NCBI GenBank assembly: GCA_002245135.1
Contig: NGBS01000586.1
Span: 248,001-312,000, forward strand
Origin: Proteromonas lacertae
Lineage: Eukaryota
Reading direction: 5' to 3'
DNA length: 64,000 nt
Shown here: positions 4,496 to 51,794 of the stretch, one piece after another
How the letters are laid out: every line of letters begins with the position of its first letter
Numbering within the stretch: position 1 is the stretch's first letter
Made by a program: the position numbers and the translations under genes
Notes under the pieces: model-generated
Databases searched by the model: none
What the model was told of the DNA's origin: nothing
Seen by the model: only the letters and a program-made list of their open reading frames with translations

Positions 4496-5869
4496 ATGAT
4501 ATTTATCTTAAAATCTTTTGTAGATGATGTAGTATCCTCGATATTGCCATCTAAATTTACAGTATTTTTTTATTTCTATATAATAGATAAAAGAGAGAGT
4601 AGAAAAGAGTAGTAGTGAAGTAGATTTGATAGTACAACTCTAGAATAACAATAAAGTGATGAAAATCATGGATATTAATGGGCTAAGAGAAACAAATGTG
4701 ATAAAATTCCATGAAAACAACTCCTTTTTGTTAGATTGTTGTTTATTTTATACCATTCCTTATGCAATGTATCAACTAAACAGTTATAATGAATGTACAA
4801 TAATATTGAGAGATTATTATGGAAGAGATTTAGAAGAGTTAATGAAGAGTAAATCCTTGTCCAATGATGATATTTATAATATTATAAGTAAAATTTGTGA
4901 TATTTTAGTGATATTAAATGAATATGACGTAGTAATAAGTAATTTGAAGAGTAGTAACGTAATATATGAAGAAGATGATAGAAATATAAAGTTATGTGAT
5001 TTTTATGTTGTTATTTAACAATTTTATGTTAAAATATGATTATGATTTGAGCAATATCTCAATAAATGATGAAAGTGCAATATCATTAACATATAAACTT
5101 GATTCAATTGGAAAATGTTATGGCAAAATAAATCTTAATGGCAATATTATCAAAATGAAAGGATTAAAATCAATTTGTCTAAAGTCCATCATGGACAAAT
5201 GAAGAATTAGAATATTATTTGAATTATTGTATTAAAAAGGAAAGAATGAATAATGAATATGACTTTTCCAGTAAATTATTCTATTATAATTATTAAATAA
5301 TATGAATATCAATGATTCTCATATTTCATTAATTAAACAGATTGATTATAAACAGCTAGATTTATCTAATAATAAAATTACTTCAAAAGGATTAAAAGAA
5401 TTAATAGATTCAATATCAAAATATTCTAATTTTTCAATATATAATAATCCAATTGGAGATGAAGGAATAGAGATAATATGTAAATATTTACACTTCTTTG
5501 TTGGTTCTTATTTATCGTTAAACCTTTTAAGTATTATATGAAATAACATTTGTAATTCTAATAGATATTGGAATGACTGAAAAAGGATTAAAGATGTTAA
5601 TAGAAGAACTAAAAAATTATTGTGAAAAATTAAAAAAGATTGATATATCAGAAAATGAAATAGATGAAAGTGAATTAAGATTGATGATGGAAAATGAAAA
5701 AGTTGTCAATGCTTTAGAAGAATTATCAATAACAGTGAAAGTAGATATAGATAAATCAGAATTAGAATTATTTTTAGAAACATTTGCAAACATTGGAAGG
5801 ATAAAAATAGATGGAATATCAGAAGATGAAAAGAAAGAATTATCCAAAGAATTCTTCAATGTAGATTAA
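4496..5869 (+). pseudogene. Pseudokinase-LRR family copy 1 (internally deleted, premature TAG at ~4641)
   Basis: Exon 1 and intron are homologous to the copies starting at 35723 and 41171. YDVVISNLKSSN..KLCDF joins directly to RNI-like LRRs (LDLSNNKITSKGLKEL, NNPIGDEGIEII); ends KEFFNVD*. Confidence 0.75.
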
Positions 5870-5989
5870 TTAATGAAACTATTATTATACAAAGATATAG
5901 TTAAATATATTATCTGTTTATCTATAGAATAATGATATATCAATAATTGAGAAAAGAAAAGATTTAAAATAAAAAAGTAAAAAATAAAT

Positions 5990-6060
5990 TGCGTCGGCCG
6001 GGAATCGGACCCGGGTCTCTTCCGTGGCAGGGAAGTATCATGCCACTGGACCACCGACGC
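5990..6060 (-). tRNA. tRNA-Gly(GCC), copy 2
   Basis: Exact reverse complement of 4247-4317. Confidence 0.93.
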
Positions 6061-6128
6061 ATATAATATTTTATTCATTTTTCGCTTCTTATACATCTTT
6101 TTTTCTTTTTCATCTTTATTTATCATAT

Positions 6129-7036
6129 ATGAATAAAGCTAAATATATTTTGTCTGTTTTAAACCATTGTTATACCACAAAATTCACACCAATGCAATTA
6201 AAATATATTTCTATGAACATTAGAAGTTTTAGTGAGATTCCAAAGATAAATCCAAAGTGTGAAAAATGTTCAAGTAAGAATGAATATATAATATAATGTA
6301 TAGAGATGATAAAATGTTGGTCTTGTTCTCATCTTTTGAGTAATTGTAGTACTGTTTGTTCAACGTGTCATAAGATTCAAGATATCACTCCATTTGAGTG
6401 TAATGATTTTGAATTATTATCTATGTATTTCTATAAATGAAAGACTGTTGTAATTTAGTTTTTAGACCAAGTCAATTTGATATAAATATAAATGAATTAC
6501 ATCAACATTATAAAAGCTTACAGAAACAGCTTCATCCTGATCGTTATTTAAATAAATCTGAAGTATATAAATGAAAATAAAAATGTATATAGAAAGAATT
6601 GAATATAAGTAAAAATATGTCAACAAGAATAAATGTAGCTTATAAACGATTAAGAAATGCATCTAGTAGAGCTCTTTATCTAGTAAATATATATAAGATA
6701 ATACATATATAATAGTTGGAATTAAATGGAATAAATAAAGATTTTCTTGAATCAGTGTTAGGTAAAAAAGACAATGAATTATTAATGGAAATATTTGAAA
6801 CAAGAGAAAAGATAGAAAGTTGTAGTAAAGAAGAATTAGAATCGATAGAAATGAAAAATAGAGAAAAGACAAATGAATGTTTGAGAGAGATATTAGATGG
6901 ATTTAAAAATAGTATGATAATGATGATTTAATAATATAAAATAGAAGATTTTGAAAGAGCCAAGAAATATATAATAAAACTACAATATTATACCAAAATT
7001 CATGAAGAATTAGTTGATAAAATGGATGTAAAATAA
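6129..7036 (+). CDS. HSCB: HscB/Jac1 (HSC20) Fe-S cluster co-chaperone, copy 2, with putative mitochondrial presequence
   Basis: Spliced translation MNKAKYILSV..KCWSCSHLLSNCSTVCSTCHKIQ..YKSLQKQLHPDRY..INVAYKRLRNASSRALYLLEL..LLMEIFETREKIE..KLQYYTKI..DVK*. Confidence 0.92.
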
Positions 7037-7276
7037 TTCTCATTTTTCTATAACAACAACAATGATTAATAAGTAATGATATATAGAATTAAAAAATATA
7101 TATCTACTATAAACGATTTTTATAACTAATTATTATTATTATTATTATTGAATTTCTTTACAATATCACTTTCTTTTATATCATCCAATACTTTTTTAGA
7201 TAATTTTCTTATATTATCATCACTCTCATTTTTTATATATTAAAAATCAACAAAAAATAATAAAGAACATAAAAAT

Positions 7277-9232: not shown

Positions 9233-10388
9233 ATGGCAAAGAACATTTCAATTAAAGATGTGTTTTATGCAATTGAATGTATTGCAGTAGGTTCATTATT
9301 TGGAATATTCATTCACAAAAGTAGAGTTTTTAATCCAAAACATGTGAGAGAACAGTTTTTATTAGTTAATTGGGTATGAGTGTTATATTTATTCGGTTTA
9401 GATCATGGTGAAAATGTTTATGAGTGCTGTAGGCTCTGGATTATTAGTCTTTTCTCTTATTGCATATTTTGATCCAGAAAGATTTGCAAAGTCACAAAAT
9501 GGCAAAAGAAATTTAATTCACAGAGGTTTAGTTGGACCATTAGTAGGAGGAATGATTTTAGGTATAGGTTTAGCTTTAGCAGGAGCTTGTCCAGGAATAG
9601 TATATATTCAAATCGGTAGTTTTGTACCTATGGCATTAATCGTATTATTAGGTTGTTTTGTTGGTGGATTCGTATTTGGCTGTGTATCTGACTCTGTAGA
9701 TAGTATTATTTTACCATCTACACCATGCACCATCCCAGGAACATTAAATGACTATTTAAGAATGCCATACTATAAGGTAGCTCCAATAGTCTCAATAATT
9801 GTGTGGTTAGTTATATTTACTATTGAGTATTTCCATCCATGGACTGTAGACTTAGATATTGGCTTAAATCAAAATCATCCAACTGGTTAAGGCATACAGC
9901 ATGGATGCCTGAAATTGCTGGTGCTTGTATTGGATTGTTACAATTTCCAACATTATATGTATGTGGAGGAGGATCAATAGGTAGTGCTAATCAATATATC
10001 ACTCTCTTAGCTCAAGTGTATGACAAAACTCAACATTTTAGAAATGCTAAAGATGGTTGGGGTAATTGGTGGCAAGTATATATATTGAGTATTATTATAA
10101 CTAAAATAGTTCTTTTTCATCTTTGGCAGTGCAATTGGATCTTTTATCAGTAATGAGATGTCATTAGCAATAATGGATATATCATCACCTGTAAGTTATG
10201 TAAGTGGATTTATTGGTGGATTTTGCTTATTATTTGGTGCAAGAATGGCTAGAGGCTGTACTAGTGGAAATGGAATATCAGGATTGTCTTTATTATCTAC
10301 TGTAGGGTTAGTATGTAGCTGTGGTATGTTTGGTGGAGCTATTGCTACTGCTATGATATTAAGGTCATTACACATGTTTGGTTATTAA
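9233..10388 (+). CDS. YeeE/YedE (TsuA-like) thiosulfate/sulfur transporter family membrane protein
   Basis: GGMILGIGLALAGACPG and GGFCLLFGARMARGCTSGNGISG motifs, multiple TM helices; apparent 1-bp frameshift near 9872. Confidence 0.85.
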
Positions 10389-15230: not shown

Positions 15231-15432
15231 CTATGAAGAGACACAAATGTAAATATATTCGTTTCATTAACAAATGTTTTCTGTTAAATACCATTGATTA
15301 TAAAATGAATCAAGCTGATTTCAATTTAAAATATCCATACATTACTTGATATATTATCAAAAACACAAAAATAAATTCATTAAATGAAAAAATTCATTTT
15401 AAAATTTGAACCTGATCTGATCGATTCTCAAA

Positions 15433-16548
15433 ATGAAATTTCTTTATTTTTTAATTTTGATATGCTGTGGCTATAATTTTGAAGAAACAAACTCATTTAT
15501 AGAAATACACAAGATATTTAAAGGTGATTCAGGTGTAGAGTACTTAGAAGGTCGAAATTTATGTATTGTGGAAGATGGCCATGTAATATCACTTAGATAC
15601 TTTCTAACTGATGATAATATACAAAATGCAATGTTATTTTTTAAATATAGGGAATTATCAAACTTCCATATTGTTGTTTTAAATCAGACTCTCAAAACTA
15701 AGTATACTGTTTGGGATAAGATTGAAACTCCATGGGCTATTTCGATGCCTTACAAACTCCATATTGGCCATTATTTAGATTCTTATATAGCTTTATATCA
15801 TTCATTATTTAATGATGAAATTCCTCAAATAGATTATTTATTTCATTTAGTATTTGATCCAAAATCTGAAATAGAATGGAATGTTGGTATATACGATCTG
15901 TTAATGCGATATTATAACAATTCAATAATAAACATTTTCCAAGATAAACTCTCTCGAATATTACCAATATGTTTTGACAAATTATATATGATTGGGAATT
16001 ATGATTATCCTAAATTCTTTCTTCCTTTTTCATATCGAAATCGAAAGACATTTCGAGATGATACACTATCCTATTTGAAAGTGAAGAAAGATGATAAAGA
16101 AAGTAAGATGAGAATAGGAATAATCAATCGAAGAAATAAAAGAGTATTAAATACTGATATAATATTTCTATATTTGAATGAAATAAAAATGAAATATGAT
16201 ATAATATATTTCGAAGATTTGAATATGAAAGAACAAATAGAATGGATGAATAGTCATAACTATATAATCGCAATTCATGGAAGTGGGTTAACAAATGTGA
16301 TTTGGTGTATAGATGGAATAGGTTTATTAGAAATAACTCATCGAGGATTTGATCATGATTTTATGGAGTGGGGAATTTACTTTAATTTTATATACCACAA
16401 GTTATACAGTCAAGATATAATTGGTGAAACTGAATATATGATTCAGAGAGAAATTAAAATAATTTATGATTATTCTGATATAAATAATGTAAATCTAAAA
16501 GAGTTTATTTATTTATTTAACCTAATTTATAAGAAATTAAATATTTAA
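15433..16548 (+). CDS. GT61/DUF563-family glycosyltransferase (secretory)
   Basis: Signal peptide; RRNKRVLN..FEDLNMKEQIEWM..IIAIHGSGLTNVIW..LLEI matches the HGAGLTN motif; intronless. Confidence 0.8.
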   Translation: MKFLYFLILICCGYNFEETNSFIEIHKIFKGDSGVEYLEGRNLCIVEDGHVISLRYFLTDDNIQNAMLFFKYRELSNFHIVVLNQTLKTKYTVWDKIETPWAISMPYKLHIGHYLDSYIALYHSLFNDEIPQIDYLFHLVFDPKSEIEWNVGIYDLLMRYYNNSIINIFQDKLSRILPICFDKLYMIGNYDYPKFFLPFSYRNRKTFRDDTLSYLKVKKDDKESKMRIGIINRRNKRVLNTDIIFLYLNEIKMKYDIIYFEDLNMKEQIEWMNSHNYIIAIHGSGLTNVIWCIDGIGLLEITHRGFDHDFMEWGIYFNFIYHKLYSQDIIGETEYMIQREIKIIYDYSDINNVNLKEFIYLFNLIYKKLNI

Positions 16549-22464: not shown

Positions 22465-25400
22465 ATGGCTTTAATTTGGATATTGTTGTTCATTTTGAGT
22501 GTCATATCTGAAAATGACTTTAAAATAGGATTTATGTTAAGAAAAGACGACTTATTAGACAAGCGAAAACTGAATCTGATATCCGATTATACACAGAAAG
22601 CATTTAATGATCAACCAGGTCAATTAAATCAAATTAAGATCTTCCAATGCACATATGAAAGTAACATACAAGATGTAACGAAATGTGTTACAGATTTAGA
22701 CAGAGATAGTGTCAAGATAATATACACATACTGCGATGATATATATTTTACTGATAGTCTAAGAAAACTTTTGGATGAAAAGAACATACTTGTTTGGTGT
22801 ATCAACACATACAGTATGGGATCTTGCGAGAAAAACTTTGTCATGGGCATTGGCATCGTTAAGACTATAGAAAAACGTATATATTATATTATCTATTTAA
22901 CATTATAGTATCATTCATAATGTCAACAAGAGCAGAAGGTTTCGGTTATATTGGCTTAAATAGACAGTTAGATGATTTTTATGTAGAGAGAATAGTAGCC
23001 GCTGCTACTGTTTTTGGTCAGAAAGAAGTAGGAATTTATTATAACGAAGTGGTTGATGAGAATATACTCAAAGAATATATCCAAAAGATAAAAGAACATA
23101 ACGATAATGTAGTTACCTATTGGAGACACAACAGTAAGACATTATATAACACTTTTATACAGCTAATGAATCATGAATCCTTAACAACTGATAAATATCC
23201 AATAGTATTACTAGAAGGAAGTTTAAATTTAGATAATTTAAAACCACCTAGTGTTGATTTGGATAATAATAAAGGAAACTATCATATAAGAGGTTATGAT
23301 GTATCATTTGATAATGAAGATAGTCAATATTATAAAGATAATTATTTACATACTGCAATAACACCATATGAAGAAGTAATAATGTATAATTTATTGTTAT
23401 TATTATTACTGATTATATATAGGTTGGGATTGATGAAAATGTTGATGTATGGATTAAATGAAAATGGAATAAAGAATCCACTTAATAAATTACATGTATT
23501 ATACAATAGAGCAATCCAATATGGTGGTGGTGAAATAGCTTTACTTCAAAACAATTATATTGCTACAACTGTTTATGCATTTGAATTTGATGGTAGTAAC
23601 AATGAAGGAGTTAAGAAATACACAATTGATGTATATAAATTCTTCGAACCTGAAGAAATAATAGGTATTATACATGAAAATAGTTGTAACTTCTTAATGT
23701 CTAGAGATGGTGTTAAAAAGAATGATTACATTGCATTCTTAATGGTTCAGAGTGTAGATGGTGATAGATATCTGGAAAATAGATATTTGAGAAGATTATT
23801 TATCTTTTTAGTTGATAAAATAAATGTTGAAGGTGGTATTCAAAGCAAGGAAGTAAAAGTTGTCTTTGTGAATATTAATAAGGATATTTATAATGTAACT
23901 GAAGATATCAATGAAAAAATAGAAAAATATAATATTGGAAGTGGATTTCTAGTTTGTTCTAGTGAAGAAAGAAATCAAATAACAAAAGAAATTGATGAAG
24001 ATTTCATGTTTTTCTATTTAGGTTTTGTTGAAGGAGAAGAATGTCAGAAGAATGTAATATTTGTATAAATATTTTCTTTTATTGTTATTATGGTATAGTC
24101 AAATTCATTAGAATCTACTAATTTTCACTTAATAATAGATTATTTAAGGAATGAATATTCAAATAGTAAAATATTGTTGATAGGAAGTGATGATCTGTAT
24201 ATATATTTATACTATTTTCATTTTATAGATTTGGATTATCATCTTTTAAGTTATTATCTAAAGAATTGTCTCAAAATGAGTTTAAAGTTGTTGATGAAGA
24301 AGGTCCAATTTTAAAAGAACAAACTGATTCTTATTTAGATAATATAATTGATAATTCAGTTTCTCTACTTGATAAGAATGATGTAATTATTATTACAGCA
24401 TCTGAAGACTATCAAGTTCCTTTGTTTAGAAGATTAATATCAAAGAATGTGATAAATAATCCATCTAATAATTATGTCATTATCTCTCTTACATTAGATG
24501 AGATTATAGCTGAAAGAATTGGTATTTCTAATTTAAAGAATGTGATTTTTCCAACTCACTTCTTTAATGGTTTTAAAACTAGTAACAAAGATTTAACCAT
24601 ATTCAAGACTTATATAAAACAAACAGAAGGATTGGTAATACCATTGACAAATAGAATGGGAATATTGTATAATAGTTTTATGTTAATATCAACCATCATT
24701 AAGTTTATTCAATATGAAAAGCCTAGTAAATATACTTCATTTTTATATAATTATCCAATAACTAATCCAATAGCAGGTGTTTATGAAATTAATTACAGTG
24801 GATATGGAATTGGTCTAGTAAGACTTGCAAAAGTATTATTATATTGATATGTTATAATTTGTTTAGATTGGTGATGCAGGAGATACAGTTTTAGTTTTAG
24901 AAGATTCATTCAATCGAATTGACAGTATATATCACAATGTTTCATTAATATGCGATTGGAGAGATAATAGAAATGGAACAAGAATAAAAAATTTCTATTA
25001 TGTTAGTACTTTATTCAATTTACATAGTCAGAATGCTTATAAACGAATGGATGATATAAGGTTAGCTATTGATTTAATAAATCAAGAAGGAGGAATAAAA
25101 GATAAAGATTTAGTGTTATTAAAGACCAATTATTATGGAGATGTTAGTAGAATATCCGATATTTATGAATCTCAAGTGAAGAAATATTCTAATATTTTAT
25201 GTTTTATTGGATCAGATACAGTTGAAGAAAAAGATGCAGTTGATAAAATATCATCAGAATATCAAGTTCCTATTTTTAGCATAACACCAGGTGTAGGTGA
25301 ACATAGTTATAAATCTATTATTCATGTATATAATAATTTTATTATTAATATATATATATGCATATATAGATGGCTTCAGTTTCATATCAAACAGTAGAAA

Positions 25401-28400
25401 TTCCATTATATTGGGCATTAGGAAATAAGAATTTTGATTTTATAGGAATAATGTATGAAGACAATGATTTGAATAAAAACAGAGATGAATATTTGACTAG
25501 AATGATAAAAGAATATTTTAAGAAAGACATTGCTTTTAATGAGATAATAACAAAGCCATATAATGACTTTATCCAAAACAAAATAAAACCAAAATTGAAA
25601 GAAAGAATGTGTATATTATCGTTTTTTGATACACATGCAATTGAGGTAGTTCAGAAATATGATTCAATTGTAGATTCTTCTAAATATCCACTAATTTTAT
25701 TTGATATTTCTTTTTATGATATAAATCGAATAGAATTTGTAAATCACTTTATATTTTTGAATTATGGTCCAGAATTAATGTCTAAGGAAAATGTTGATTT
25801 ATTGAATAGAATAAAAGAGTATAAAGGATCTGAAAAATTAGCAAAAGATGAGTTTATTAATATTTATGATGCTTTATTATTCATTACAAATGCATATAAT
25901 AGAGTTTTAGCTCATTCAATTATTGAAGAAAGTATAACAATACATGATATTAGACAAATGCTATATAATCTAGAGGTGAGATGCCCAGATGGATTAAAGA
26001 AGCTATTTCATAATAATTATGTGAATAAATACTTATATTTAATTCAAATAACATCACAGAATGATCATGTGCATTTTATGGATGTATCTTTTCCTGTTAT
26101 ACCAAGTCCGTATAGTTTTATAATGAATAATTATGAACATAAAACTATTGATTATGCATATGGAAATAATGAAGTGTATAATGATGATCCAATTAAGATT
26201 GTGTATTTTTTAGATTTGAATAATTTGGGCTTTGATAATTATATAATATCCAAATCTGTAATAGATCAAACCAATTATGATGGGGGATTAAATGGTAAAA
26301 GAATAGTTTCTGAGTTTTATCAGTGTCCAACTACTGAAGCAGAAGCTAATCAAACTGTGAAGGATTTGTATAATAGAAATTTCACAGTAGTAATAGGTGG
26401 ATGTGACAAAACAACAAGAAAAACATTAATACCAATTCTTGCTGACTTGAATATGTTATTATTCTATACAGGGAATAATGAAGGTTTAGAATGTTCAAGA
26501 AATGTAATTTACATGTCTTCATCTCCATCACAAGGAATTATTCCATATTTATTACATTTATTTAGAAGAGAACAAAGAACTTTTGTGTATATTCATGGAC
26601 ATGAAGAGAATAATGTTGTTAGAGATAAACTAATCAGATCTGTATTTAAAGGGTTTGGTGTGAGATTAGACGTAACAATAGGATTAGATTTTCTTCATAG
26701 AACAAAAGAACAAGTAGAACAGGATATAAAAATGGTGCTTGGAGTAATAGAATTTTACTATCGTGAAGGTTGTGCTATTCTTACATTAATGTCAGATGAT
26801 AATATTAATCTCTTTTTGAAAGTATTTAATCAATATTTCAGTCATTATGGAGATTCAAAAGATATAGCAAAGGTTTATCCACTTTATTTAATAGATGATA
26901 CTAACTCGGTATATGATCCAACAGTATCAGAGGGTAATTATGTTTATTCGGCAAATATATTTGATAGTAATAGTGAGATGAATATGAAATATGTAAAAGT
27001 GTTTAAAGATTATACTTATGGTAAATTACCAAGTCATTCTGATTTATTGCTATTTGATTCAACTGGACTTGTTTTACAGATATTTAAAGGTTTGCTGAAT
27101 GACATTCATAATCACACTGCTTTATTTAGACAAGTTTATCTAACATCGCTTATATCAGCATCAGGAAACCTTTCAGTAAGTGATGGAAATAGTGTCAATC
27201 AAAAATTATACTTTGGACAAATAAACAAAAATGGTACAATAGATTTGATAGATATAGTGACAGATAAGTACTATGGTGAAATGTATAGAACTAATTTTAA
27301 TAGAGAAGAGTATATTATTTGTGATTGGAAGAATAGAATGGTTGATAAATATTCTGAAGATTTTATAAGACTAGGAATTGTTGTTTCATCTGATATAAAT
27401 GCTATTGAAGATAGTGTATTACTGTTTTTATCTATTTATGCTGAATGTTTAATATATAACCAAATGTTAGGTGGAATAAAAGGAAAACAAATTAATTTAT
27501 TTACAGTTAATGATGGTGGATCAGAAAATGAAGCATATGAGAAAATAAAAAGTGCATATGAAGAATATAATATAATATTCTATTTGGGTGGATTTACTAG
27601 AAATGTAAGAGATGGTTTAAATAGAGCAGCAAATGAATTTAACTTGTTATTTTTCTATCCAAAAGATTATGAAGATGAAGAATGTAAGTTTAATGGATTC
27701 TACGGAGGAATTGGTTTTAATTCTTATATTCCTCTTCCTTCAATAATACAGCAACATTCATCAGGAACTTCATTAGTAATATTATATTCAGATACAGTTC
27801 ATTCTGTATATTTTGTGGAACAGTTATTAAAAGAGTTATCTATTTTGGGCGTTCAAGTAGAATTGTTGTTGAAAATAGTTTTCGGTAATTCAGATTTTGA
27901 TAATGTTGCAAAGAAGATATATCATATTGCTCCAAATGGTGTTTATATTGTATCAATGTTAGAAGGAAAAGCAAAATCCTATTTAATACAAAGTCTATAT
28001 AACAATAATATGTTTCCACCAAAATTTGTTGCTATGAGTATGAATATGGATGATGAATCAATGAAGAAACTAAAAGAAGCATCATCAGGCCATTTTTATT
28101 GGGATACTTATGAAGTAGATAATTCTTACGAATTGTATAACGATGTAGAATTGAATTTTCTTTTATTATGTCCATATATTGGAGATATTGATAGATTAAG
28201 CATTAGAGGAATAGTATTGACTAGATTATTAACTGATGCATGTAATAGAGCAGATGTATTAGAATATAAGGAAGTAAGAAAGAATTTATATGATCTTGTT
28301 GACACTGCATTTGGCACTATACAATTTACAAAAAACAACCGCTTACCTTCAACAGTTATATTAAAAAAAGGAGTATATAATGAGATAAGTGATGATTATA

Positions 28401-31400
28401 ACTATTCCATTGAATATGAATATAAAGGTAGATTTGTACCAAGAGTATATGGTAATGTTTTTATAAATACAAATGAAGTAAAAGAATGTGTTTTATATGA
28501 TACAAAAATAATTAATACGTATGATAGAGTGACAATTGCCTTGATATTTTCAACTTCAGGTGAATTGAAGGATGTTCATGAAAAAGCACTTTTAGGAGCT
28601 ATAACAGCTTTAGAAGATGTATATTATTCGATTTTTCATATTAACAATGCAAGTGTATTAGCAAGAGTTGTTAATTATAATAGTAATATTCAAACTTTAA
28701 AAGAACAACTGCAAGTATTAAGTGAAGATGATTCTGTTGTTGCTTACCTTGGTTGTACAGATATAGAATGTAAAGAAGTAGTTGAAAATGTTACAAATAC
28801 AATCAAGAAGCCTTTTTATTATCCAAAAATATCATTAGGAGAAGAATGTAGTTATTACACTTTCTTTACATCCATGGTTTCAAATCAATATGTTTCAAGA
28901 TTTTTTGATTTCTATCTTGCTAGTAGTTACAATAGAAATTATTATATTATAACAGAAAATAATCCTGCATTAGATACAATCAAAAGTGTAATTTATTATC
29001 AAACAGGTGGATTATTCAAAGAAGTAGGTTCGTTTGTTTATGAAGATGGCAAGAATTTCAATGTTGATTTATTGAATGACATATTTGAAAAAATGAAAGA
29101 TGGAGGTGTAATAATGATAATTTTACTAGATATTGATATATTACAGCAATTTTTAAATTTATATTCTTCAATGTTATTTGATAGTAATAAATTTGCAGTA
29201 GTTGATTTATTGTTGGAAATAGAAGAGTTAGAAAAAATATCAGAAAGTTCAAGAAAAGGATTGTATCATGTAACAAGATATTCATATGATATAGATTCAG
29301 AAGATAATAAAAAGTTCTTAAGTAAAACAATAAATTATGTTAATGAAAGAAAACCCACATCATTGTTTGAATCATCTTATTTAGCAGTTCAGTTTTTTGT
29401 AAATGCAGCAATGGGTGATAGTTTTGAAACAGAAGATATTATTCGTAATTCGATTGGTCTATCATATCGAGTTGGAAGTGGTTATGCAACAATTAATTCA
29501 AATCATTATATTACATCAGGTGTATTTATTGTTAGATTTGATATAGACAATGGTAAAACATATTCTATTGTAAAATCATATTTTGATCAAGTTAATCCTC
29601 AAGCATATAATTGGATGGTAACTTCAAATTTTGGGTATGTATGTACTTTTCCTGATAATTCAATTAAAGGAGTAAAAACTAAAATACCAATGGAAAGAAT
29701 TGCTGTAATAGGAGAATTCTCGAATCACTTAGACGTTGTAAGTTATATTACTGTATTTGAAGGTATGATTGATCTAATTAATGAAGAAACTATGGGTGGA
29801 TATTACATAAGAGTAAATTTTTTTGATTCAGAAATATGTTCAAATTTGATTAATCAATTTATATTAAATGGAAAACCAATTGCTGTATTTTCATTTTCAG
29901 ATAATGATGAATGTTTGAAAAGCCTTTATAGTGATGTTATTGAGATAGAAAATACTTTATTTTTTCAATTGGTAGAACAATCTGCATTAGTTTGTGTAGA
30001 ATATGTGTATTTTGCATTAGATCATTTTTCATTTTATACTCCAGTTTTAGATGTTATACAATCCAGATTGTATGATGAAATTCTAATTGTTAGTAATGAG
30101 AATAACACTATAGCAAAACTTTCTTATGAATATTTGAAAAAGAATTATGGAATTATGGATGATAAATATATTTTTGAATATAATGAGAATACAACATCTC
30201 AAAATGTGTTGGATTATTTATATTCATACAATAATAGATTATGTATTTTATTTTTTGGTACAACATATGGATTTAAGCTGTTAACTGAGTCAATGGAAAG
30301 TGAATCTATGACTGAACCGAAGTATCAGATAATTATTATGGATCCAAGCTCAGAAATTGATATAATTTCATTTCATGATTATGAAAGAGTATTATATTAT
30401 AAACCAATTGAATCAAATTATCAGTTCTATCTTCTAAAAGGTATGTTAAATGATGAAGTAGGCGAATTACCTTTTGTTAATGATGCTGCTGTTAGATTAT
30501 ATACAACAATGAAAATATGGAAAGCTGCAATAGATTCATTACCAAAGAATATATTCTTAGAAGGAGGAAGAGTAGCTAATGTATCTAGAACAAATGTAAT
30601 AAATGCAATTACTAATACTAAAATTGTGACTGTAGAAGGATTAACATTATTTGGCGATAATCATTATTTATCAAGATATTTAAATATTGTAGAACATGAT
30701 GATGATCATAATCTTATTATGAGTTTTGATGGAGATTATGTAACTAACGTTCACACATATATAAACGAGAAAATGAATAATGTAATAAAAGTATGTGATT
30801 TATCAAATCCAAGTTTAGATGGTGTATTTTTAGAAACAGAAACAATTGTCATAGTATTATCAATAACAGGACCTGATAGAGTTAAAGAACAATCAATATT
30901 TGAAGCAATTCATTTAGGTGTAGACTACATTAATCAAAATGGTTTGTTATTGGATCATTATATTTTATACAAGTTATATAATGCAGGATCTAGCGATGAT
31001 GACTATATCTCGATATTAAACGAATTAAAAAGTGAAAATTATAAATATATTTTTGCAGGTTTTAAAACTTCTACTTTAGAGAGAATAGGTGATATATTTG
31101 AAGATACAGATAAGAAATTGTTCTTTTTAGGTAGATCTTTAGGAAAATGTTATAGTAGCAATACAATAATAAGTCATTTACATCCGTCTCAAATTGCCCA
31201 AGCTGTTATTTATCGATTATTATCTGTGAGTTTTAGTGCATTTATTATTAGATCATCATCTGATGGTTTTGCTGATGCTGTACAACAACATATAAACTCA
31301 AGAATGGTTGGTTTATCATTAACTACATTAGGAAATATTGCACTAGAAGATCCAGAAAAAGCTATAAAGATAATAAGGACAGCCATACCAGAAGGAGGTT

Positions 31401-33791
31401 ATATTATAACAATATTCTCAAATCAGCAAGATACTATTGCATTCTACAGTGCAATGTGCAGAAATGGTTTGAAATATCCTAAATACAAAATTATCAATTC
31501 CATATTTAATGAGAATATGAAGTATTTATTTAATGATTATGAGTGTCTGTATGGTTCGATAGTAATGGATTCTTATTTTGAATCAGTTGGTGAAAATGAA
31601 CACAATGAAATAGAAGTGCCATCATTTGCCTCTGGTTTTAATATAGCTTATCACAATCATATTGGTGATTCAAATAAAAGAATAACTGGATTTCAAGTAG
31701 CTGCTTATGATGCAATTATCTTTTGGAGAGCAATAATTATAAAAAGAAATACTTTCGATATTAATGACTCATCAGATATGTATCATTATGTAGTAAATTC
31801 ACCATCTGGATTAATAGAACTTGATGTGAATAATTACATGTTAAGAACAGTATATGGAGGAACAATAAATGAAAATTGGTGATATAATTATTGATTGGTT
31901 ACCTTCAGCTACATTGAAAGCTTATATTTATGATCAATATAATATATCTGAAATAGGATACTTTTGTGATTGGACTGATTTAAAGAATAAAGGTAAAAAA
32001 TATTTACTAATCCTATAAATCTATTATTCGTTCATGAAAATGATTATGGAGGGAAAACTGATAGATATTCTCAATTATTGACTGACATAATAATTGTAAA
32101 TATAAATAAAGCAGGTGGAGTATTGGGTAGAGAAATAGCTGCTATTCATTTTTGGACAACAAGTTCAAAATTGTTTCAAACAATAAGAAAAGTAATTGAT
32201 ATAACAAAATCAGAAGTGATATTTGGTTGTGTGACTGAAAGTTGCGCTGATGAAGTAGAGACCTTTGTTTATAGCAGACCAGAAATGTTTTTTTATACAG
32301 GAAGAGATGATGGAGTGAATAACCAAAGAAATGCAATAATGAGTTGTACATCATTAAATCAAAAAGTGGATGTTCTTAATCAATATTTGATGTTATTAAG
32401 ATATAAATATGCCATATTAATTGGTGATAAAAGAAATATTACTGAAACAGGAAAGTATATAATAGAACAATCGTTCAAACAATCAAATATTACACTTTTA
32501 TATACCTTAAGTACTTCTGTTGTGGATGTAATTTATTTGAATAATTTGATGAATACATTATATTCACAAGTGGAGGATTTTATTGCAGATAAAGTAGCAA
32601 TAGTTGATTTATTTCCAACTGGTGAAAATCAAGTGTTTTTATCTGTTTTTTCTCAGAATAAACAATTATCAAATGCTACAGGGTTATTCATTATGAATTA
32701 TGATCCAGCTGATATATATGATGAATCATTATATAACTTAGGTGGTGAATATGTAATAACTTCATACAGTGTAACAAAAACTTCAACAATTTCAAATGCA
32801 TTCCATTATTTAATGAATTCTAATTTCCCAAATTTGGATGAAATATCTGAACTAAATGAAAATATATATAGTTCAATTTATCAATGGAAAGAAGCAGTAG
32901 AATATTCAAAGCAATACACAAATGGAAAATGGCCAAATAGGAATTATGTAGAATTAAGTATTAAAGATATAAGATATGAAGGCCCAAGCGGAAATATAAA
33001 AATTGAATCAAATAATCGAGCTTCAAAGAATGTTTTTTTATATAGAATAGATAATAGTCGTCTTATCCAAGAATATCCTAAATTGATTAAAGAAAATATA
33101 ATTCATCCATCTTCTACTTTTGGAAATGATGATAATTATACAAAATCTCAAAGATTATTTGAAATGAATGATTCATATGTTATATTAGTTGTGATATTTT
33201 GTATAGTAAATGTAATTTTATGTGTAATTGCCTTAAGTGTAGTAATTCATAAACGTAAAAGTAGAATAGTAAAGAATGAGAATTTGTCATTCTTGTGTTA
33301 TAGTATATTATCGTTATTTATATTGTCACTTGTTGGAATTATATATGTAATTCCACCTGATAATAAAGTTGTGTGCGCAATGCGTGTATGGTTATTGTCG
33401 CTATCTGTTGACTTAATCTTTAGTATAATGTTTTCAAAAGCATGGAGAATAAACAAATTGTTTAACAATAAAAAGTTAGAAAAAATCAAAATATCGAATA
33501 TGTTGTTATTAAAGATAATTGGTTTAATACTGTTATTACAGATTGTGTATTTGTCGTTGTGGTGGATTGTTCAACCATCTAATCCAATATTAACATATAC
33601 AGCAAATCATTCAAATTATTTAGAAGATGTATATTTCCGTCAATGCTCAACTTCATTACCATTTGTAATAATTGAATTTATAAAGAAATTTGCAATATTT
33701 AGTTATGGATTAAAATTGGGTTGGGGGTTAAGAACTGCTTCTGCAGAATATAATGATTCTAATTCAATAATATCTATAATTTGTGTTATGA

Positions 33792-33833
<42 letters not shown>

Positions 33834-34461
33834 ATATTTATTGTTATTAGTGATGTTTGGAATTATTTTAATTCCATTAGATTTCATGTTATCAAATGAA
33901 GCAGAATCAGTAATGTTTACTCGAAGTTTTGGAATAGAATTAGGTGTTTTATTATTGCTGTTATTACAATTTGGTTCAAAAATAATCAGTTTAATAAGAG
34001 GAAGATATTTCAGCAGTAGTGAAACAAATTCAGTTTCTGGTAGTTTTATGTCTTCAACATCTAATAGCACTCTTCGAAATAAATCGCTGGCAAGCCGAGG
34101 TAGATTTGAAGTATATCCCTGTTTAATTGATTTACCTCCAATTGTGATAGCTACCATATCTGAATCTGATAGATTTTTTGAAGAAATAATTAATAAGAGA
34201 AGTACAAAACTGTATGGTAGAAAGAATACTGTGGCTAGTAACCAAAGCATGGATAGCAAAGCATCTAATTTTTCATCTTCATCTTCTAGAGTTAATAAGA
34301 CTTTGCAAATTCAAATTAGTTTGGCTAATACTCAAATAGTTCATGAGAGATTTTCTGATAAAAAGACAACTCTTAGTCCAATTCATCGTAATAACATAAA
34401 TAATTCAACAAGAAATAATGTATTAACTGTACATACTTCAGCAATGAATACTAGATTGTAA
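22465..34461 (+). CDS. Giant class C-like GPCR: signal peptide + 9 tandem UrtA/AmiC-like periplasmic-binding (Venus flytrap) domains + 7tm_3 domain + Ser-rich tail
   Basis: ORFs 22465-34461 are joined by short introns plus two compensating frameshifts (~31877, ~32000). Repeating INxxGGxxG(K/R)xI and (L/F)FYxxxxEGxECSxN motifs at ~390-aa period; 7TM with CAMRVW..SKAWRINKLF, EYNDS, LLQFGSKI. Confidence 0.85.
33793..33828. repeat. (TA)n microsatellite inside a GPCR intron
   Basis: Run of ~18 TA units after the GT donor at ~33792. Confidence 0.9.
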
Positions 34462-34607: not shown

Positions 34608-35723
34608 TTAATCAATATTGAAGAATTCTTTTAATAATTCTTTCTTTTCTTCTTCTAGTTTTATCTTTTCAATTGAAGAAACAGTATTTAAAAATGATTT
34701 TAATTCTGATTTATCTATATTTTCTTTTGCTGTTATTGACAATTCATCTAAATTATTGTTGGATAAATCAAGCTTATAAAAATTAATTTGTTCAATTAAT
34801 GTGATATGAGAATCGTTAATATTTGAATCTATTTTAATACAATAATCCAAATAATATTCCAATTTTTCATTAGTCCATGATGGATTATCTCAATATTTCA
34901 CTCATTTTTATCATTTCTTTATTCAACTCTTTTAAACTCAGTCTATCTTCACTCTTTACTTTTAACATTCTCAATATCATCTCTTTCATTCTATCATCAC
35001 ATTCTACTTCAAAACTGTATTTACATTTCATAACATTCTCTTTTGTTTTATTCATATTATCATCTTCATTGAATGGTAATTTCTTAAACATCATTTCATA
35101 TAATATACATCCAATTGACCAAATCACACTTTCATCATTACATTCATATCCACTTAATTCTTCTAAGCTTTTGAAACAGATATCATACACTCTCATATCA
35201 TCTTCTTTTCTTAATTCATTCAACAATAAATCACATATTTTTACATTACCATCTTCTTCATATATTATGTTACTACTCTTCAAATTACCTACCACTACAT
35301 CATATTCATTCAATATCATCAATATATCACATATTGAACATATTACATCACATATTTCATTCATTGAAAGAGATTTATTCTGAATTATCTCTTCCATGTC
35401 TCTCAAGTAATATTTTCGTTTCAATATCACATATTCACTTTCAATATTTACTTGGAGTGTTTTAGAGGGATAAATAAAGGGTAAATGACAGTCTAACAGT
35501 AACTTATTGTTCTCTAGGAATTTTAATATCTTCTTTTCCTTAATTCCTGATACACTCAACATTTTCATCATCTTAAGATCATTTTCATTGAGAATTACTA
35601 AATTTAACTCACTACTACTTTTTTCTACTCTCTCTTTAATCTATACGAATAAATCAAGAGAAATACTTCAACATCATAGGGTAATATCAATGATAGAATG
35701 TCAGCTGAAAGAGAAAACTTCAT
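34608..35723 (-). pseudogene. Pseudokinase-LRR family copy 2 (kinase fold retained, LRR region mostly deleted)
   Basis: ATG 35723, intron, kinase-like ORF whose 228 aa match copy 3 exactly, stop at 34885, then short remnants homologous to the copy 1 tail ending KEFFNID*. Confidence 0.7.
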
Positions 35724-38464: not shown

Positions 38465-41171
38465 TTAGACTATATTTCGCTTCTTTTTACTGCAATAATC
38501 ATCGTAATAATATACCACTTCATAATTTTCCCATAATGAAAATTTCATTTCTATAAATGGATATTCTTCTTTCTCTAATGATTTAGAACAAATAGATTTT
38601 AATCCCTTTATTCTTATATAATTTCCACTTAGATTTATTCTTTTACAATCTTTAACAGAATCTATTTTTTCTGATAATAATATCACACTTTCATCATCTA
38701 TTTCTATATTACTCAAATCTATTCCGTCAAAATCCACTAATAAATCTAATTTGTTTAATAACAATTTAAATCCAACATTACCAATTTTATTACCTATAAA
38801 AGCAATAATAGAAATAATTACATAAATATACCATAAATACAAATACAAGAAATATTATCATTTTCATTCAAATACAAGAAATATTCTATCCCATCTGAAT
38901 CAATAAAGTTATCACTTATATCAAGTTCTATCTTCTCTTCAAGATTCTTTAAACTATCTAATAAATATTTTAAACCAGTTGAAGATAATCCCATATCTTT
39001 ATATAATAATAATAATAATAATACTATAAAAATTTGTTATATCAATAAAATAGATAATAATCTTGATCATTATGACAATATTCTTTCACTAGGAAATTCA
39101 AATATGGTGCTACTATTCTCATTCCTTCATCTCCAATCAAATTTCCACTTATTTGAAATTCTCTTAATTTTGGAAATGAATTTATCAGTATTTTCATACT
39201 TTCACATGTTAATTTATTATCTATAGCCTAAATCAATATCAAATTATACCTCTTAAATCTAATGCATTTATATCTTCCAATTCATTTGATCTTAATGAGA
39301 TGAAGGATTTAAACAAATCATCATCAATATCTAAGATGCTAAGATCCAATATGTTATAATAATCTCCATTCTCATCTACATCTACACTTTTAATGATATT
39401 GATTAATTCAGGAATATCTTCATCAACCAATAAATCTTTTTGTGCATCACAATGTACTTTTCCAACTTTGAGTAATAAAGATTTCAATCCTTTGGAATGA
39501 ATATTTTTATTTCCTCTTATGTCTATTTCCTTTATTTTTGGATATTTGTATAATTCTTCTGATAATAATATCATTGATTCATCATCCAATTTGCATTTCA
39601 AAAAGATACAATTCATTTTCTTTGTTGATTAATAAATGTAAATATGGAAGCAATAATTTAAAACCTTCTAAACCTATTGAATTATCTATTATATAAAATA
39701 AATTGATAATATATATACATGAAAGATCTACATGTTCCAATTTCATAAATGGAATTGATTTCACAAATGATTCAATAAATATAATAGTAATATTACAAAA
39801 TGATAAATCTAATTCTTGCAAAGATGATAATCGAAAAAATAAAGATCCAAATAATGATTGTTGTTTAATTGGAATGAAGGAATATAAAATTATACCAAAT
39901 CTAAGTTTTGTTGGATTGATCAGTTTCATTATTTTAAAGAGATAATTCATTCCTTCTTCACATAAACACATACTTTCCGAAGGAACTTTAATTCTTTCAT
40001 CATTATAATCAGTGTGAATGTTAAGAATTATTTTATCTAAATAACACTCTTTTCCTTCTTTACACAGGTGATTTATTTGATATTTCACTTTATCTTCTAT
40101 TGATCTATCTTTTTTGTATAATTTCATCATCAATAATATTGATAGTTTTCTTTCATTTGGTTTATTATTGTATGATTTTATCAAAACATCTCGAAGTTCT
40201 TCTCTTTTATTACATTGAAGATAATATTCTGATGGATATATAATAGGAAGCGTTAAAATCATATTATCGCTACTGAATAATATATCTTTTCTTTCTTCAT
40301 ATATCATCAAATTATCATCATTATCTCTCAATATTTCACTCATTTTTATCATTTCTTTATTCAACTCTTTTAAACTCAGTCTATCTTCACTCTTTACTTT
40401 TAACATTCTCAATATCATCTCTTTCATTCTATCATCACATTCTACTTCAAAACTGTATTTACATTTCATAACATTCTCTTTTGTTTTATTCATATTATCA
40501 TCTTCATTGAATGGTAATTTCTTAAACATCATTTCATATAATATACATCCAATTGACCAAATCACACTTTCATCATTACATTCATATCCACTTAATTCTT
40601 CTAAGCTTTTGAAACAGATATCATACACTCTCATATCATCTTCTTTTCTTAATTCATTCAACAATAAATCACATATTTTTACATTACCATCTTCTTCATA
40701 TATTATGTTACTACTCTTCAAATTACCTACCACTACATCATATTCATTCAATATCATCAATATATCACATATTGAACATATTACATCACATATTTCATTC
40801 ATTGAAAGAGATTTATTCTGAATTATCTCTTCCATGTCTCTCAAGTAATATTTTCGTTTCAATATCACATATTCACTTTCAATATTTACTTGGAGTGTTT
40901 TAGAGGGATAAATAAAGGGTAAATGACAGTCTAACAGTAACTTATTGTTCTCTAGGAATTTTAATATCTTCTTTTCCTTAATTCCTGATACACTCAACAT
41001 TTTCATCATCTCAATATCATTTTCATGTTGAATTACAATTTCATCTTCATTACTACTTTTTTCTACTCTTTCTTTTATCTAGACAATAGTAAAAAACTAA
41101 AATACTTCAGTATGAGATGGTAATATCAATGATAGAATGTCATCTACAAGAGATTTTAAGAAAAAAAACAT
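38465..41171 (-). CDS. Pseudokinase-LRR family copy 3 (longest; probably 3'-truncated or disrupted)
   Basis: MFFFLKSLVDDILSLILP exon, intron, kinase-like domain (VGNLKSSN, ICDLLL, IWSIGCILYEM), then multiple RNI-like LRRs over several exons; frameshift near 39600. Confidence 0.75.
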
Positions 41172-48672: not shown

Positions 48673-49190
48673 TTAATCTTCTTCCATTGTATTCTCTATC
48701 ATATTCTTCAATTCTGGAATTACATTGTCAATCTTGTCTTTTAACATCTCATTCATTTCTTCTTCATTTTCTAAATCTAATATTGATTTTATAAATTCAT
48801 CTTGTTCACTGATTATCTTTTTAGCTAATTTTATATTATCTCTTAATCTCTTTATTCGTTTCTATTGATTAAATTATAATATTTATCATTTCATATATAT
48901 ATATATATATATATTATATATACACTTTCTGTTTTCATCACCATTACTGGATGTTCATTCAACTCATTTCCAGTTTCTATTAGATTATTTTGCTGTTCAA
49001 TTCGAAATAATAATGCTTGGATTTTAGAATGTAAATAGGTTAAGTATTGTTGTTTGAAATAATCAACTGGCATTTCGATTATTTCTCTTGAACTTGCTTC
49101 TTCTTTGATTTGTTCTAATGAAAATACAACATCAGCTAAAGCAGTTGTTTGTTTATTTACTAAATCCTATATCACAAATTATAAATATAA

Positions 49191-49225
<35 letters not shown>

Positions 49226-50215
49226 TAAATACATCAACTGCATCTCTCAATTCACTCACATAACTTCTCAATGTATCATTTTCTTTTTGTAATTCAATAA
49301 ACTGATTATAATAACTCTCACTTACAACACTTTGAAATTCTTTGTAAGCTTTTTCTTTACTTACTTTATATTGAGGTACTGGCTTCATTTGACTATTTAA
49401 TACAATACCACTTTTTAGTCTGTTTTCTAATGATTTAATCAATTCTTCTTGCTTTATTAAGTTTTCTTGATCTCTTAATTTATTTTGATATTTCAACATC
49501 CTTAGTTCATTAAATATTTTAGCATTTTTTTGATATTCTAAAATCAATTCATTATTATTATTAATAGATTTTATTAAATTATCTCCTGATTCTTTTAATC
49601 TGTTTATATTTCCCTATTTTTGTATTAATATTTATTATATTATATTATATTATATTATTTATACTTGATATTGATTTTCTAATCGACTGATTTTAAAATT
49701 GTTTCGTTCTTTCTCTTTGTTCTTTTCTGAATATAATTTCTTTATTTCTTTTTGTTTAATTTTTAGTTTGTTTATTTCTTCTTCTCCATTTTTGATTTTT
49801 TGATTTGTTTCTCGAATCTTATTTCTTATTATACTTTCATCATTTATTAATCGATTTCTTTCAGCTTCTTTCTTTCGAAGAGTTATTTGAGATTCTTCCA
49901 AACTGCTCAAATCACTTCTTCTTTGATTGATTAGAGTATATAAACAGTTTATTACTTTTATTGCATCTTCTTCTGATAACTGAAGAAAATTGGAAGGTAC
50001 AGGAAATTTCATATCTTCCATTCTATCAATTGATTATCAATAATGAATATACGTAATTTTTAAGAAAATTGCTTTATCATAAATAGAGATGACATTAGGA
50101 TCTCCATGTGTAGGAGCTACATAGTTAAAATTTGATAAAATATACTCACTACACATGCATCGGACATTTCAAAACTAGAATTTATGGATATGTCGTTTAT
50201 ACCGTCTATTTCCAT
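48673..50215 (-). CDS. SSX2IP/ADIP-like coiled-coil protein, tandem copy A
   Basis: MKFPVP..VINCLYTLINQRRSDL..coiled coil..ELQKENDTLRSYV resembles the ADIP domain; multiple short introns. Confidence 0.55.
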
Positions 50216-50946
50216 AGATTTTATAGTTATACATAAAAATACACTAAATACACTAAAACTTTGTATTTTGTATATACAACCAAAAACACAATAATACAAT
50301 CATTTTATATTAAAAAACTGATGATTCTGATGATATACTACCGCTCACAGATGTTGGTTTCTTAGGTAGAGTTTCATCTTCTTCAATTGTTGTTTCATTT
50401 ATCTCACTTGGCATTGCAAATGATATTCCATCAACTGGTGTCGGAGGAACATTCTCTATCATATTCTTCAATTCTGGAATTACATTGTCAATCTTGTCTT
50501 TTAACATCTCATTCATTTCTTCTTCATTTTCTAAATCTAATATTGATTTTATAAATTCATCTTGTTCACTGATTATCTTTTTAGCTAATTTTATATTATC
50601 TCTTAATCTCTTTATTCGTTTCTATTGATTAAATTATAATATTTATCATTTCATATATATATATATATATTATATATACACTTTCTGTTTTCATCACCAT
50701 TACTGGATGTTCATTCAACTCATTTCCAGTTTCTATTAGATTATTTTGCTGTTCAATTCGAAATAATAATGCTTGGATTTTAGAATGTAAATAGGTTAAG
50801 TATTGTTGTTTGAAATAATCAACTGGCATTTCGATTATTTCTCTTGAACTTGCTTCTTCTTTGATTTGTTCTAATGAAAATACAACATCAGCTAAAGCAG
50901 TTGTTTGTTTATTTACTAAATCCTATATCACAAATTATAAATATAA

Positions 50947-50978
<32 letters not shown>

Positions 50979-51794
50979 TATAAATACATCAACTGCATCT
51001 CTCAATTCACTCACATAACTTCTCAATGTATCATTTTCTTTTTGTAATTCAATAAACTGATTATAATAACTCTCACTTACAACACTTTGAAATTCTTCAC
51101 ATGCATCTTCTTCGCTTGTTTTCCATTCATATCGTGGTTCTAGTGGCATTGAGTCTTTACCTAATAAAACAGATCCATGACGGAATTTCTTTGATGAATT
51201 TGTTGATTTGATGTGGTTCACTAAAGCTTCTCCTGATTCTTTTAATCTGTTTATATTTCCCTATTTTTGTATTAATATTTATTATATTATATTATATTAT
51301 ATTATTTATACTTGATATTGATTTTCTAATCGACTGATTTTAAAATTGTTTCGTTCTTTCTCTTTGTTCTTTTCTGAATATAATTTCTTTATTTCTTTTT
51401 GTTTAATTTTTAGTTTGTTTATTTCTTCTTCTCCATTTTTGATTTTTTGATTTGTTTCTCGAATCTTATTTCTTATTATACTTTCATCATTTATTAATCG
51501 ATTTCTTTCAGCTTCTTTCTTTCGAAGAGTTATTTGAGATTCTTCCAAACTGCTCAAATCACTTCTTCTTTGATTGATTAGAGTATATAAACAGTTTATT
51601 ACTTTTATTGCATCTTCTTCTGATAACTGAAGAAAATTGGAAGGTACAGGAAATTTCATATCTTCCATTCTATCAATTGATTATCAATAATGAATATACG
51701 TAATTTTTAAGAAAATTGCTTTATCATAAATAGAGATGACATTAGGATCTCCATGTGTAGGAGCTACATAGTTAAAATTTGATAAAATATACTC
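48691..51794. repeat. Tandem direct duplication with two identical blocks (48691-49342 = 50451-51097; 49582-50147 = 51229-51794)
   Basis: Direct comparison; identical ORF translations 49659-50021 vs 51306-51668; differences seen only in intronic microsatellite length. Confidence 0.92.

Follow-up and report, generated by a model that had tools for sequence, protein, structure and literature searches.

Between positions 22,465 and 34,461 of a 64,000-nucleotide stretch of Proteromonas lacertae DNA (assembly GCA_002245135.1, contig NGBS01000586.1, positions 248,001 to 312,000 of the forward strand; "the window" below means this whole stretch), the sequence raises the question of whether one eukaryotic gene can join a long chain of bacterial-type solute-binding modules to a G protein-coupled receptor (GPCR), and what such a receptor would sense. 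A sequence-only reading had proposed a UrtA/AmiC-type module fused to a class C, GABA-B-like membrane domain and amplified nine-fold, and sequence searches, fold searches and relatives that carry both parts in one frame all bear this out. The gene encodes a signal peptide, nine UrtA-type Venus-flytrap repeats of ~390 residues (R1 to R9), a short stalk, a GABA-B-like seven-transmembrane (7TM) domain and a Ser-rich tail. With moderate confidence, we read it as one GABA-B-type class C receptor whose nine UrtA-derived modules have lost their urea contacts, likely a chemoreceptor for another ligand, and the frame slips that interrupt it as likely assembly errors.

Nine UrtA-type modules on a class C membrane domain

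The membrane part scores 99-101 bits against the Pfam family 7tm_3 (cut-off 33.5), which places the protein in class C, and its best relatives of solved structure are GABA-B2 (E 1e-11), GABA-B1 and GPR156. Seven helices can be assigned, six by hydropathy and the fifth transmembrane helix (TM5) by alignment with GABA-B2 and its relatives; a model of the part before the last intron shows six long helices. The Cys at the top of TM3 is invariant in all 19 aligned rows, and a Cys of extracellular loop 2 is aligned across the family. As in other class C receptors, a large N-terminal ectodomain of type I flytraps precedes the membrane, and the nine-cysteine NCD3G domain of mGluR, CaSR and T1R receptors is absent. 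A model of R9 with TM1-6 (predicted local distance difference test, pLDDT, 86.5; predicted template modelling score, pTM, 0.73) has GABA-B receptors as its top Foldseek matches but differs from them in domain orientation, with a root-mean-square deviation (rmsd) of ~25 Å.

The repeats are strongly diverged, only 11-19% identical to one another. Some nine Peripla_BP matches together with 7tm_3 had been expected; the 7tm_3 match is there, but Pfam recognizes parts of only seven repeats as Peripla_BP_5 (R2-R6, R8 and R9, E 1e-5 to 2e-24) and gives no match for R1 or R7, and it is the iterated family profile that detects all nine (44-254 bits). For most repeats the UrtA family TIGR03407 is the best or sole relevant NCBIfam match, always far under its cut-off (at best 72 bits against 492.75). 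A PDB search with a profile of six repeats returned six sequences at E<=0.01, namely three cyanobacterial UrtA proteins, one other urea binder and two AmiC, and no animal flytrap at that threshold. The ANF_receptor family, to which the single flytrap of GABA-B belongs, reaches at most 13 bits per repeat (cut-off 25.4). Structural comparison ranks UrtA first (Z 45-46), before AmiC (42), LivJ-type proteins (38 or less) and GABA-B (~31, against R8). By Pfam, PDB profile and fold, the repeats stand apart from the ANF flytraps of animals, a grouping that would have counted against the sequence-only reading. R7 is barely covered by the fold search, and its assignment comes from profile, tree and the secondary structure of the model.

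Each repeat unit corresponds to a complete mature UrtA with its C-terminal tail, and the units follow one another head to tail with no spacer. The R6 model aligns with UrtA over 381 of 395 residues, tail included, and the tail motif of R8 is found in a shifted frame. An AlphaFold model of R6-R8 (1,116 residues, 34 rows) has a pLDDT of 86 and a pTM of 0.77, and the two-lobed fold is kept in all modules tested by models. Every window repeat is nearest to the same-numbered repeat of a relative, P0003 (23-42% identity on the diagonal, 10-21% off it); this holds even for R1, 28% identical to R1 of P0003 and 12-16% to its other repeats.

Translation from the first ATG, through six GT-AG introns of 32-44 nucleotides in the 5' part, runs for 3,066 residues to a TGA at 31880-31882, and a seventh GT-AG intron links TM6 to the tail, which ends at a stop codon at 34459-34461. 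A tblastn alignment of P0003, which is intron-free in this part, is interrupted at the predicted 5' introns; the open reading frames (ORFs) of P0001 and P0007 end at the position of the seventh, and P0005 aligns gap-free over that splice. An alternative donor for the last intron, at 33785, was discarded since 17 stops result. The single protein of ~3,900 residues that had been claimed on splicing alone is thus only partly right: a protein of ~3,906 residues needs two frame corrections as well, because 31878-32003 codes in a shifted frame, and our corrected model has an X at each of the two breaks. All nine motifs quoted earlier are present in it, and each of the ten coordinates given for the repeats and the membrane region lies in TM1 or in a repeat's first strand. 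The features are collected in Table 1.

Table 1. Features of the receptor gene, in window coordinates.
Feature	Position	Strand	Observations
Start codon (first ATG) and predicted signal peptide	22465..22519	+	Hydrophobic N-terminus; same start type in P0003, P0174 and P0175
Repeat 1, most diverged	22515..23720	+	Contains introns 22877-22908 and 23384-23422; without Pfam match; family profile 44 bits
Repeat 2	23721..24992	+	Contains introns 24063-24098, 24197-24228 and 24833-24866; first exon Peripla_BP_5 E 7e-6, TIGR03407 E 4e-5; profile 158 bits
Repeat 3	24993..26188	+	Contains intron 25326-25369; without both staple cysteines; Peripla_BP_5 E 1e-5; profile 144 bits
Repeat 4	26189..27361	+	Peripla_BP_5 E 1e-23; TIGR03407 72 bits (cut-off 493)
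Repeat 5	27362..28525	+	Peripla_BP_5 E 6e-16; sole position with a partly conserved aromatic/acidic cleft
Repeat 6	28526..29692	+	Peripla_BP_5 E 2e-24; model against UrtA 8HIC: Z 45.8, 381 residues, rmsd 2.9 Å
Repeat 7	29693..30838	+	Without Pfam match; profile 99 bits; flytrap secondary structure in model
Repeat 8	30839..32005	+	Peripla_BP_5 E 9e-15; C-terminal tail in shifted frame
Compensated frameshift pair	31877..32005	+	Extra base near 31877, missing base near 32003-32005; premature TGA 31880-31882
Repeat 9, membrane-proximal	32009..33137	+	Peripla_BP_5 E 1e-14; without UrtA tail and both staple cysteines
Short stalk without cysteine-rich domain	33138..33178	+	No NCD3G match; no Cys
Class C 7TM domain	33179..33985	+	7tm_3 E 4e-28; TM6 split by intron 33792-33850
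Ser-rich cytoplasmic tail and stop codon	33986..34461	+	19% Ser; no family match

Relatives, the urea pocket and the origin of the module

The architecture is shared by a family. An exhaustive profile search of 1.84 billion representatives gave, as its top entries, proteins with up to nine matched stretches, and among 61 scanned matches (a subset of at least 150) 15 carry 7tm_3 behind three to nine repeats, 13 of them above the Pfam cut-off. Repeats and 7TM domain share one ORF in P0001, and two proteins found with P0002 as query, P0174 (4,080 residues, ENA) and P0175 (3,909 residues, JGI), each encode a signal peptide, nine repeats and 7tm_3 in one ORF. P0002 likewise has nine repeats, the first cut short, and 7tm_3 in one ORF. 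The count of nine recurs in the window protein, P0003, P0002, P0174 and P0175, five proteins that differ widely in composition. Many of the other scanned matches begin or end as though cut at an intron, by our reading. Pfam gives ten stretches in P0174, owing to an insertion of ~120 residues (~3010-3135) within its eighth repeat; this protein also has a Cys-containing stalk and a 7TM domain at most 17-22% identical to those of other members, and it may represent a separate fusion. A word-seeded search with R4-R6 had returned none of its 7,496 candidates as a relative; it was too insensitive, given how many the exhaustive profile search brought up. No relative turned up in two metagenome scans, and the absence of a cluster with both Peripla_BP_5 and 7tm_3 among the ESM Atlas matches listed has no weight as evidence.

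By composition the relatives fall into 41 AT-rich, window-like multi-repeat proteins (fragments included) and a few GC-rich ones. The AT-rich clusters looked up, 16 proteins, were Logan-only in all 16 cases, and P0043 and P0175 are automatically annotated as "urea transport system substrate-binding protein". About 35 AT-rich relatives have the position-specific array of the window protein, and in the repeat tree AT-rich repeats cluster by position (FastTree support 0.905-0.999 for the R4-R8 clades). Because they do so, the array was already built, and its order set, when the AT-rich family began to expand. Repeats of the GC-rich proteins cannot be paired clearly by position, whether among these proteins or with the window, and P0174 has internal repeat pairs, R1/R4 and R3/R6. 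The tree of the 7TM domains is weak and has no outgroup.

To ask what the modules might bind, we transferred the pocket residues of UrtA to the repeats through an alignment with structure 8HIC. The accessible text of PMC10392092 names nine pocket residues, of which mutation of Trp120, Ser122, Gln144, Tyr190 or Asn246 abolishes or strongly cuts urea binding; UrtA itself binds urea with a Kd of 141 nM. Each of the nine window repeats keeps none or one of these five. In contrast to the window protein, all five are kept in eight of nine repeats of P0174, seven of nine of P0175 and five of nine of P0002. When domains gapped at any pocket column are left out, 120 complete AT-rich repeats keep none (78), one (35), two (5) or three (2) of the residues and in no case four or more, and 64 of 109 other domains keep all five. 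The last repeat has at most one of the five in P0174, P0175, P0002, P0043, P0189 and P0176. The GC-rich members with an intact pocket are therefore likely urea sensors, and the ligand of the window receptor is likely something other than urea, as judged from these residues.

The module has also been joined to other bodies. Four proteins of a 46-member cluster (P0121, P0189, P0190 and P0195) carry two UrtA repeats, of which only the first has an intact pocket, followed by a membrane helix and a glutaminase domain; their repeat groups with the receptor repeats, and they could possibly be urea-controlled glutaminases. P0176 (EukProt) has four UrtA repeats arranged as two intact/degenerate pairs, ephrin-receptor-like Cys repeats and a multi-helix membrane part without a 7tm_3 match, so that the UrtA module is here reused on a different kind of receptor body. 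In P0059 an arginase domain accompanies a UrtA domain, joining a urea-producing enzyme to a urea binder. P0030, P0033, P0034, P0072 and P0105 have a UrtA domain at both ends and HEAT repeats or an AAA/NB-ARC/NACHT-type region in the middle. Three AT-rich proteins of ~535 residues (P0054, P0076 and P0083) cluster together; in P0054 a hydrophobic N-terminal region accompanies a single UrtA domain whose pocket is altered.

The donor of the repeat was likely a cyanobacterial-type urtA. In a scan that covered 20 of 64 parts of the prokaryotic genomes (577 confirmed matches), of the 80 loci that best matched a P0002 repeat, 78 were cyanobacterial by title, the other two being "uncultured bacterium", at 52-57% identity. 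In the Nostoc linckia match a Cys-Asp-Trp tail ends the protein and a permease gene follows, while in the receptors the same tail runs directly into the next module. A quick tree placed 18 GC-rich eukaryotic repeats in one group (Shimodaira-Hasegawa-like approximate likelihood ratio test, SH-aLRT, 89) next to cyanobacterial UrtA (87, a grouping that includes two unnamed rows). Profiles made from AT-rich positions 5-8 also score cyanobacterial UrtA highest (mean 227-288 bits), ahead of intact GC-rich repeats (188-238), other prokaryotic matches (177-222) and a distant PF13433 protein from that Nostoc (44-68).

Possible mechanism and competing explanations

A eukaryote would have acquired a cyanobacterial-type urtA, fused it to 7tm_3 and then amplified it. 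Two cysteines of the module, one in lobe 1 and one in the C-terminal tail, occur as a pair: among 164 AT-rich repeats, 150 have both, 10 have neither and four have only one, although these rows are related and the P value is not a probability. They are predicted to form a disulfide that staples the tail to its module, so that the modules would form an ordered chain rather than loose beads, an arrangement suggested by the lack of spacers, the probable staple and the fairly confident packing of the three-repeat model. Neither cysteine is present in R3 or R9 of the window protein. Ligand-induced closure of distal modules would then shift the chain and be passed along it, and the pocket-dead ninth module would act as an adaptor, relaying this motion to the 7TM domain by way of the short stalk; like GABA-B and BvgS, the receptor would probably do so as a dimer. 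The adaptor role is suggested because the last module never has the urea pocket. The GABA-B2 flytrap likewise does not bind ligand. The ancestral ligand was likely urea; in the window lineage the gene would have multiplied and the clefts drifted. If a site has been retained, R5 is the most promising module, with a small nitrogenous cation as its likely ligand: its UrtA pocket columns hold Tyr in 18, Asp in 13 and Glu in 14 of 22 family members, and most other modules may be scaffold or paralogue-specific sites. More tentatively still, we propose an undescribed eukaryotic class of GPCRs with a disulfide-stapled ectodomain of nine captured cyanobacterial urea-binding proteins, in which P0002, P0174 and P0175 would be urea-activated and integrate up to eight sites through the pocket-dead ninth, and the window lineage would be a large chemoreceptor repertoire whose specificity differs from slot to slot.

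A number of results weigh against this account. In R6-R9 the cleft columns fall below average conservation (0.27-0.29 against 0.36-0.40), values that loop alignment error may depress, and in R4 and R5 they are only slightly above average (P 0.24 and 0.068), so that even the R5 signal is weak. The multi-ligand antenna proposed by the sequence-only reading is likewise tentative, as the R6-R9 clefts do not exceed average conservation. We recomputed conservation on tree clades, because counting positions from the C-terminal end picked out the best window match in just 107 of 173 cases; support for the R9 clade is low. Between the window protein and its close relatives, identity in the cleft (83/254) equals overall identity (3532/10605), both 33%, which would fit loss of binding as well as diversification. 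The disulfide is predicted from co-occurrence among related sequences, and the accessible part of the UrtA paper (PMC10392092) does not mention one. The pTM values given above have no control. As to origin, the prokaryotic scan covered 20 of 64 parts, the cyanobacterial sister position is unstarred in the quick tree, as is the GC-rich group, and the AT-rich repeats are long branches that this tree leaves unplaced.

The same cleft values invite the view that in the AT-rich lineage the ectodomain is a stiff, glycosylated, non-binding stalk or surface-recognition rod, which would sense contact, force or macromolecules and gate the 7TM domain mechanically. We consider this unlikely but deserving of serious attention. 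Cleft columns are under no extra constraint, yet conservation of the staple cysteines in R4-R8 is 91-100%; 21 N-glycosylation sequons lie in the ectodomain, and the repeat number is conserved. A diversifying chemoreceptor family would show variable clefts too, however, and a rod does not readily account for the Tyr, Asp and Glu retained at the R5 pocket columns or for the two-lobed fold retained in all tested modules.

Whether the window copy is intact turns on the frameshift pair, which the sequence-only reading had missed, as it had the family with intact urea pockets. The 126 bases between the two indels code in the shifted frame: read that way, 31878-32003 matches the end of R8 in all five homologues compared (scores 148, 146, 127, 115 and 87; shuffles at most 53, the other two frames at most 41). 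P0001, an orthologue from an independent assembly, reads through the 31880 junction into the 7TM domain in one ORF; it shares 54% and 60% identity with the two window ORFs, and ~60% with the shifted segment. Because this matches the 54-60% of the flanks, the segment is not decayed, and since the orthologue also reads through, either an assembly error or a recent lesion is indicated, of which we think the assembly error probable. Splicing does not remove the break: the sole single-intron bridge found, 31840-32064 (225 nucleotides), would cost R8 its end and R9 its first strand, and no combination of two small introns reopens the frame at 31880. Programmed frameshifting was set aside, as it would need +1 and then -1 within ~125 bases and no fitting slippery site was seen.

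If the frameshifts are real, the window copy would be a recent pseudogene whose product is, at most, a secreted fragment of 3,066 residues with eight repeats, and the family would be as described. The stop is there in the sequence as given, and in so large an AT-rich family losses are expected. We nevertheless regard this as rather improbable, given that one indel exactly offsets the other and both are located within or next to short T runs, where sequencing errors often fall, and that the shifted segment and everything downstream, the 7TM domain and its intron included, is conserved like the upstream part. On the other side, the assembled sequence alone cannot separate assembly error from pseudogene, and two indels within ~125 bases, with no other break in a coding model of ~11.7 kilobases (kb), are equally clumped under both. 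The duplicated segments of the window give no assembly-error rate, as the pair near 48.7 and 50.4 kb differs in microsatellite length only.

That the window receptor itself still senses urea or simple amides, as the sequence-only reading had supposed, is very unlikely. UrtA is the nearest protein by both sequence and fold, and relatives retain the pocket; against this stand the loss of at least four of five essential residues from every window repeat, the absence of any AT-rich repeat with four or more, and the single mutations that, in the accessible text of PMC10392092, abolish or strongly cut binding in UrtA. Nothing in our analysis supports the gut setting that had been suggested with it. 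Finally, an in-frame stop does lie between R8 and R9, but that the repeats and the 7TM domain are separate genes, bacterial contamination or a mis-join is hardly credible, as both parts share a single ORF in relatives, spliceosomal-type introns at which the P0003 alignment is interrupted lie within the repeats, the neighbouring genes (IFT144, RPB5, S8e, TBC and PX) are eukaryotic, and R9 has neither a signal peptide nor an early in-frame ATG.

Genomic setting, known systems and significance

The window is 23-32% GC per 2 kb, contains zero N and is densely packed with genes, among them IFT144/WDR19, RPB5, ribosomal protein S8e, TBC and PX proteins, kinases, an ABCG-type transporter and Hsp70. 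These neighbours mark the host as a eukaryote, one that probably has flagella and short introns. The receptor ATG lies 213 bases downstream of the IFT144 stop codon. Elsewhere in the window, a YeeE/YedE-type sulphur transporter gene (9402-10385, + strand; PF04143) is a possible bacterial acquisition in a eukaryote, and a glycosyltransferase family 61 gene lies at 15421-16545 (+ strand). An inverted duplication of 99.8% identity (3088-4476 and 5830-7219), with a tRNA-Gly(GCC) in each arm, surrounds kinase and leucine-rich-repeat-like fragments. Tandem duplications affect a kinase gene (34888-35714 and 40326-41153), an ADIP-like coiled-coil gene whose copies differ in microsatellite length only (48691-50147 and 50451-51794) and a single-pass membrane protein gene (52052-52635 and 53483-54065).

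Among known systems, GABA-B subunits (7C7S, 9JQX) share with the window protein 7tm_3 and a type I flytrap on a short stalk without a cysteine-rich domain, but have one ANF-type flytrap where the window protein has nine of UrtA type. UrtA of the UrtABCDE importer (8HIC, 7S6E, 7S6F; TIGR03407) and AmiC (1PEA) share fold, length and the Cys-Asp-Trp tail, and the GC-rich relatives share the full pocket as well; the window repeats differ in lacking that pocket, in scoring at most 72 bits against 493, and in being receptor modules with no permease. Tandem flytraps are also said to occur in trypanosome adenylate cyclases (PMC6027212). As far as the accessible part of PMC4352136 goes, BvgS and EvgS likewise carry flytraps in tandem, the module next to the membrane being distinct; in BvgS this module has been proposed to stay closed and transmit strain, which offers a model of how the window receptor could operate. 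Both are histidine kinases of bacteria, have one to five flytraps and use a single helix as output, and we draw the likeness by analogy, claiming no homology.

Fusion of a bacterial binding domain to 7tm_3 is itself already known. In the accessible parts of the literature, Peripla_BP//7tm_3 is among 20-odd architecture labels (PMC3971589, supplementary figure S3), Bmp, OpuAC, SBP and other domains are found on 7tm_3 (PMC3251606, PMC5168858), diverse non-animal class C ectodomains are reported (PMC12716839), Entamoeba has a flytrap anchored by glycosylphosphatidylinositol (PMC12965686), and the idea of a binding-protein origin is restated (PMC13466386). In these parts, each architecture of a non-animal receptor with a bacterial solute-binding domain (Peripla_BP, Bmp, OpuAC, TctC, PBP_like_2, SBP type II) names that domain once and none bears the name UrtA, in a figure read by its labels, which may collapse repeats; the longest N-termini there are 1,600-1,667 residues, against ~3,490 in the window protein. 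What appears to be new is the tandem, UrtA-type design. We found no description of a tandem or UrtA-type flytrap on 7tm_3 in the open-licence literature, in agreement with the sequence-only reading, although the architecture supplement of PMC12716839 could hold one; nor did we find there any description of a urea-sensing GPCR in protists.

Class C receptors, in the accessible descriptions, have one flytrap per chain, and the model of their activation rests on that. A chain of nine modules asks how binding many modules away from the membrane reaches the 7TM domain, and is thus a natural test case for long-range allostery. That class C ectodomains arose from bacterial binding proteins has long been proposed, and the family offers an example that can be dated, because its repeat still points to one particular bacterial protein (52-57% identity in relatives). 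This origin is caught in two states, one with the pocket intact and one with the pocket remodelled after expansion of the gene family, and the pocket-intact members provide a direct test for a urea-sensing GPCR.

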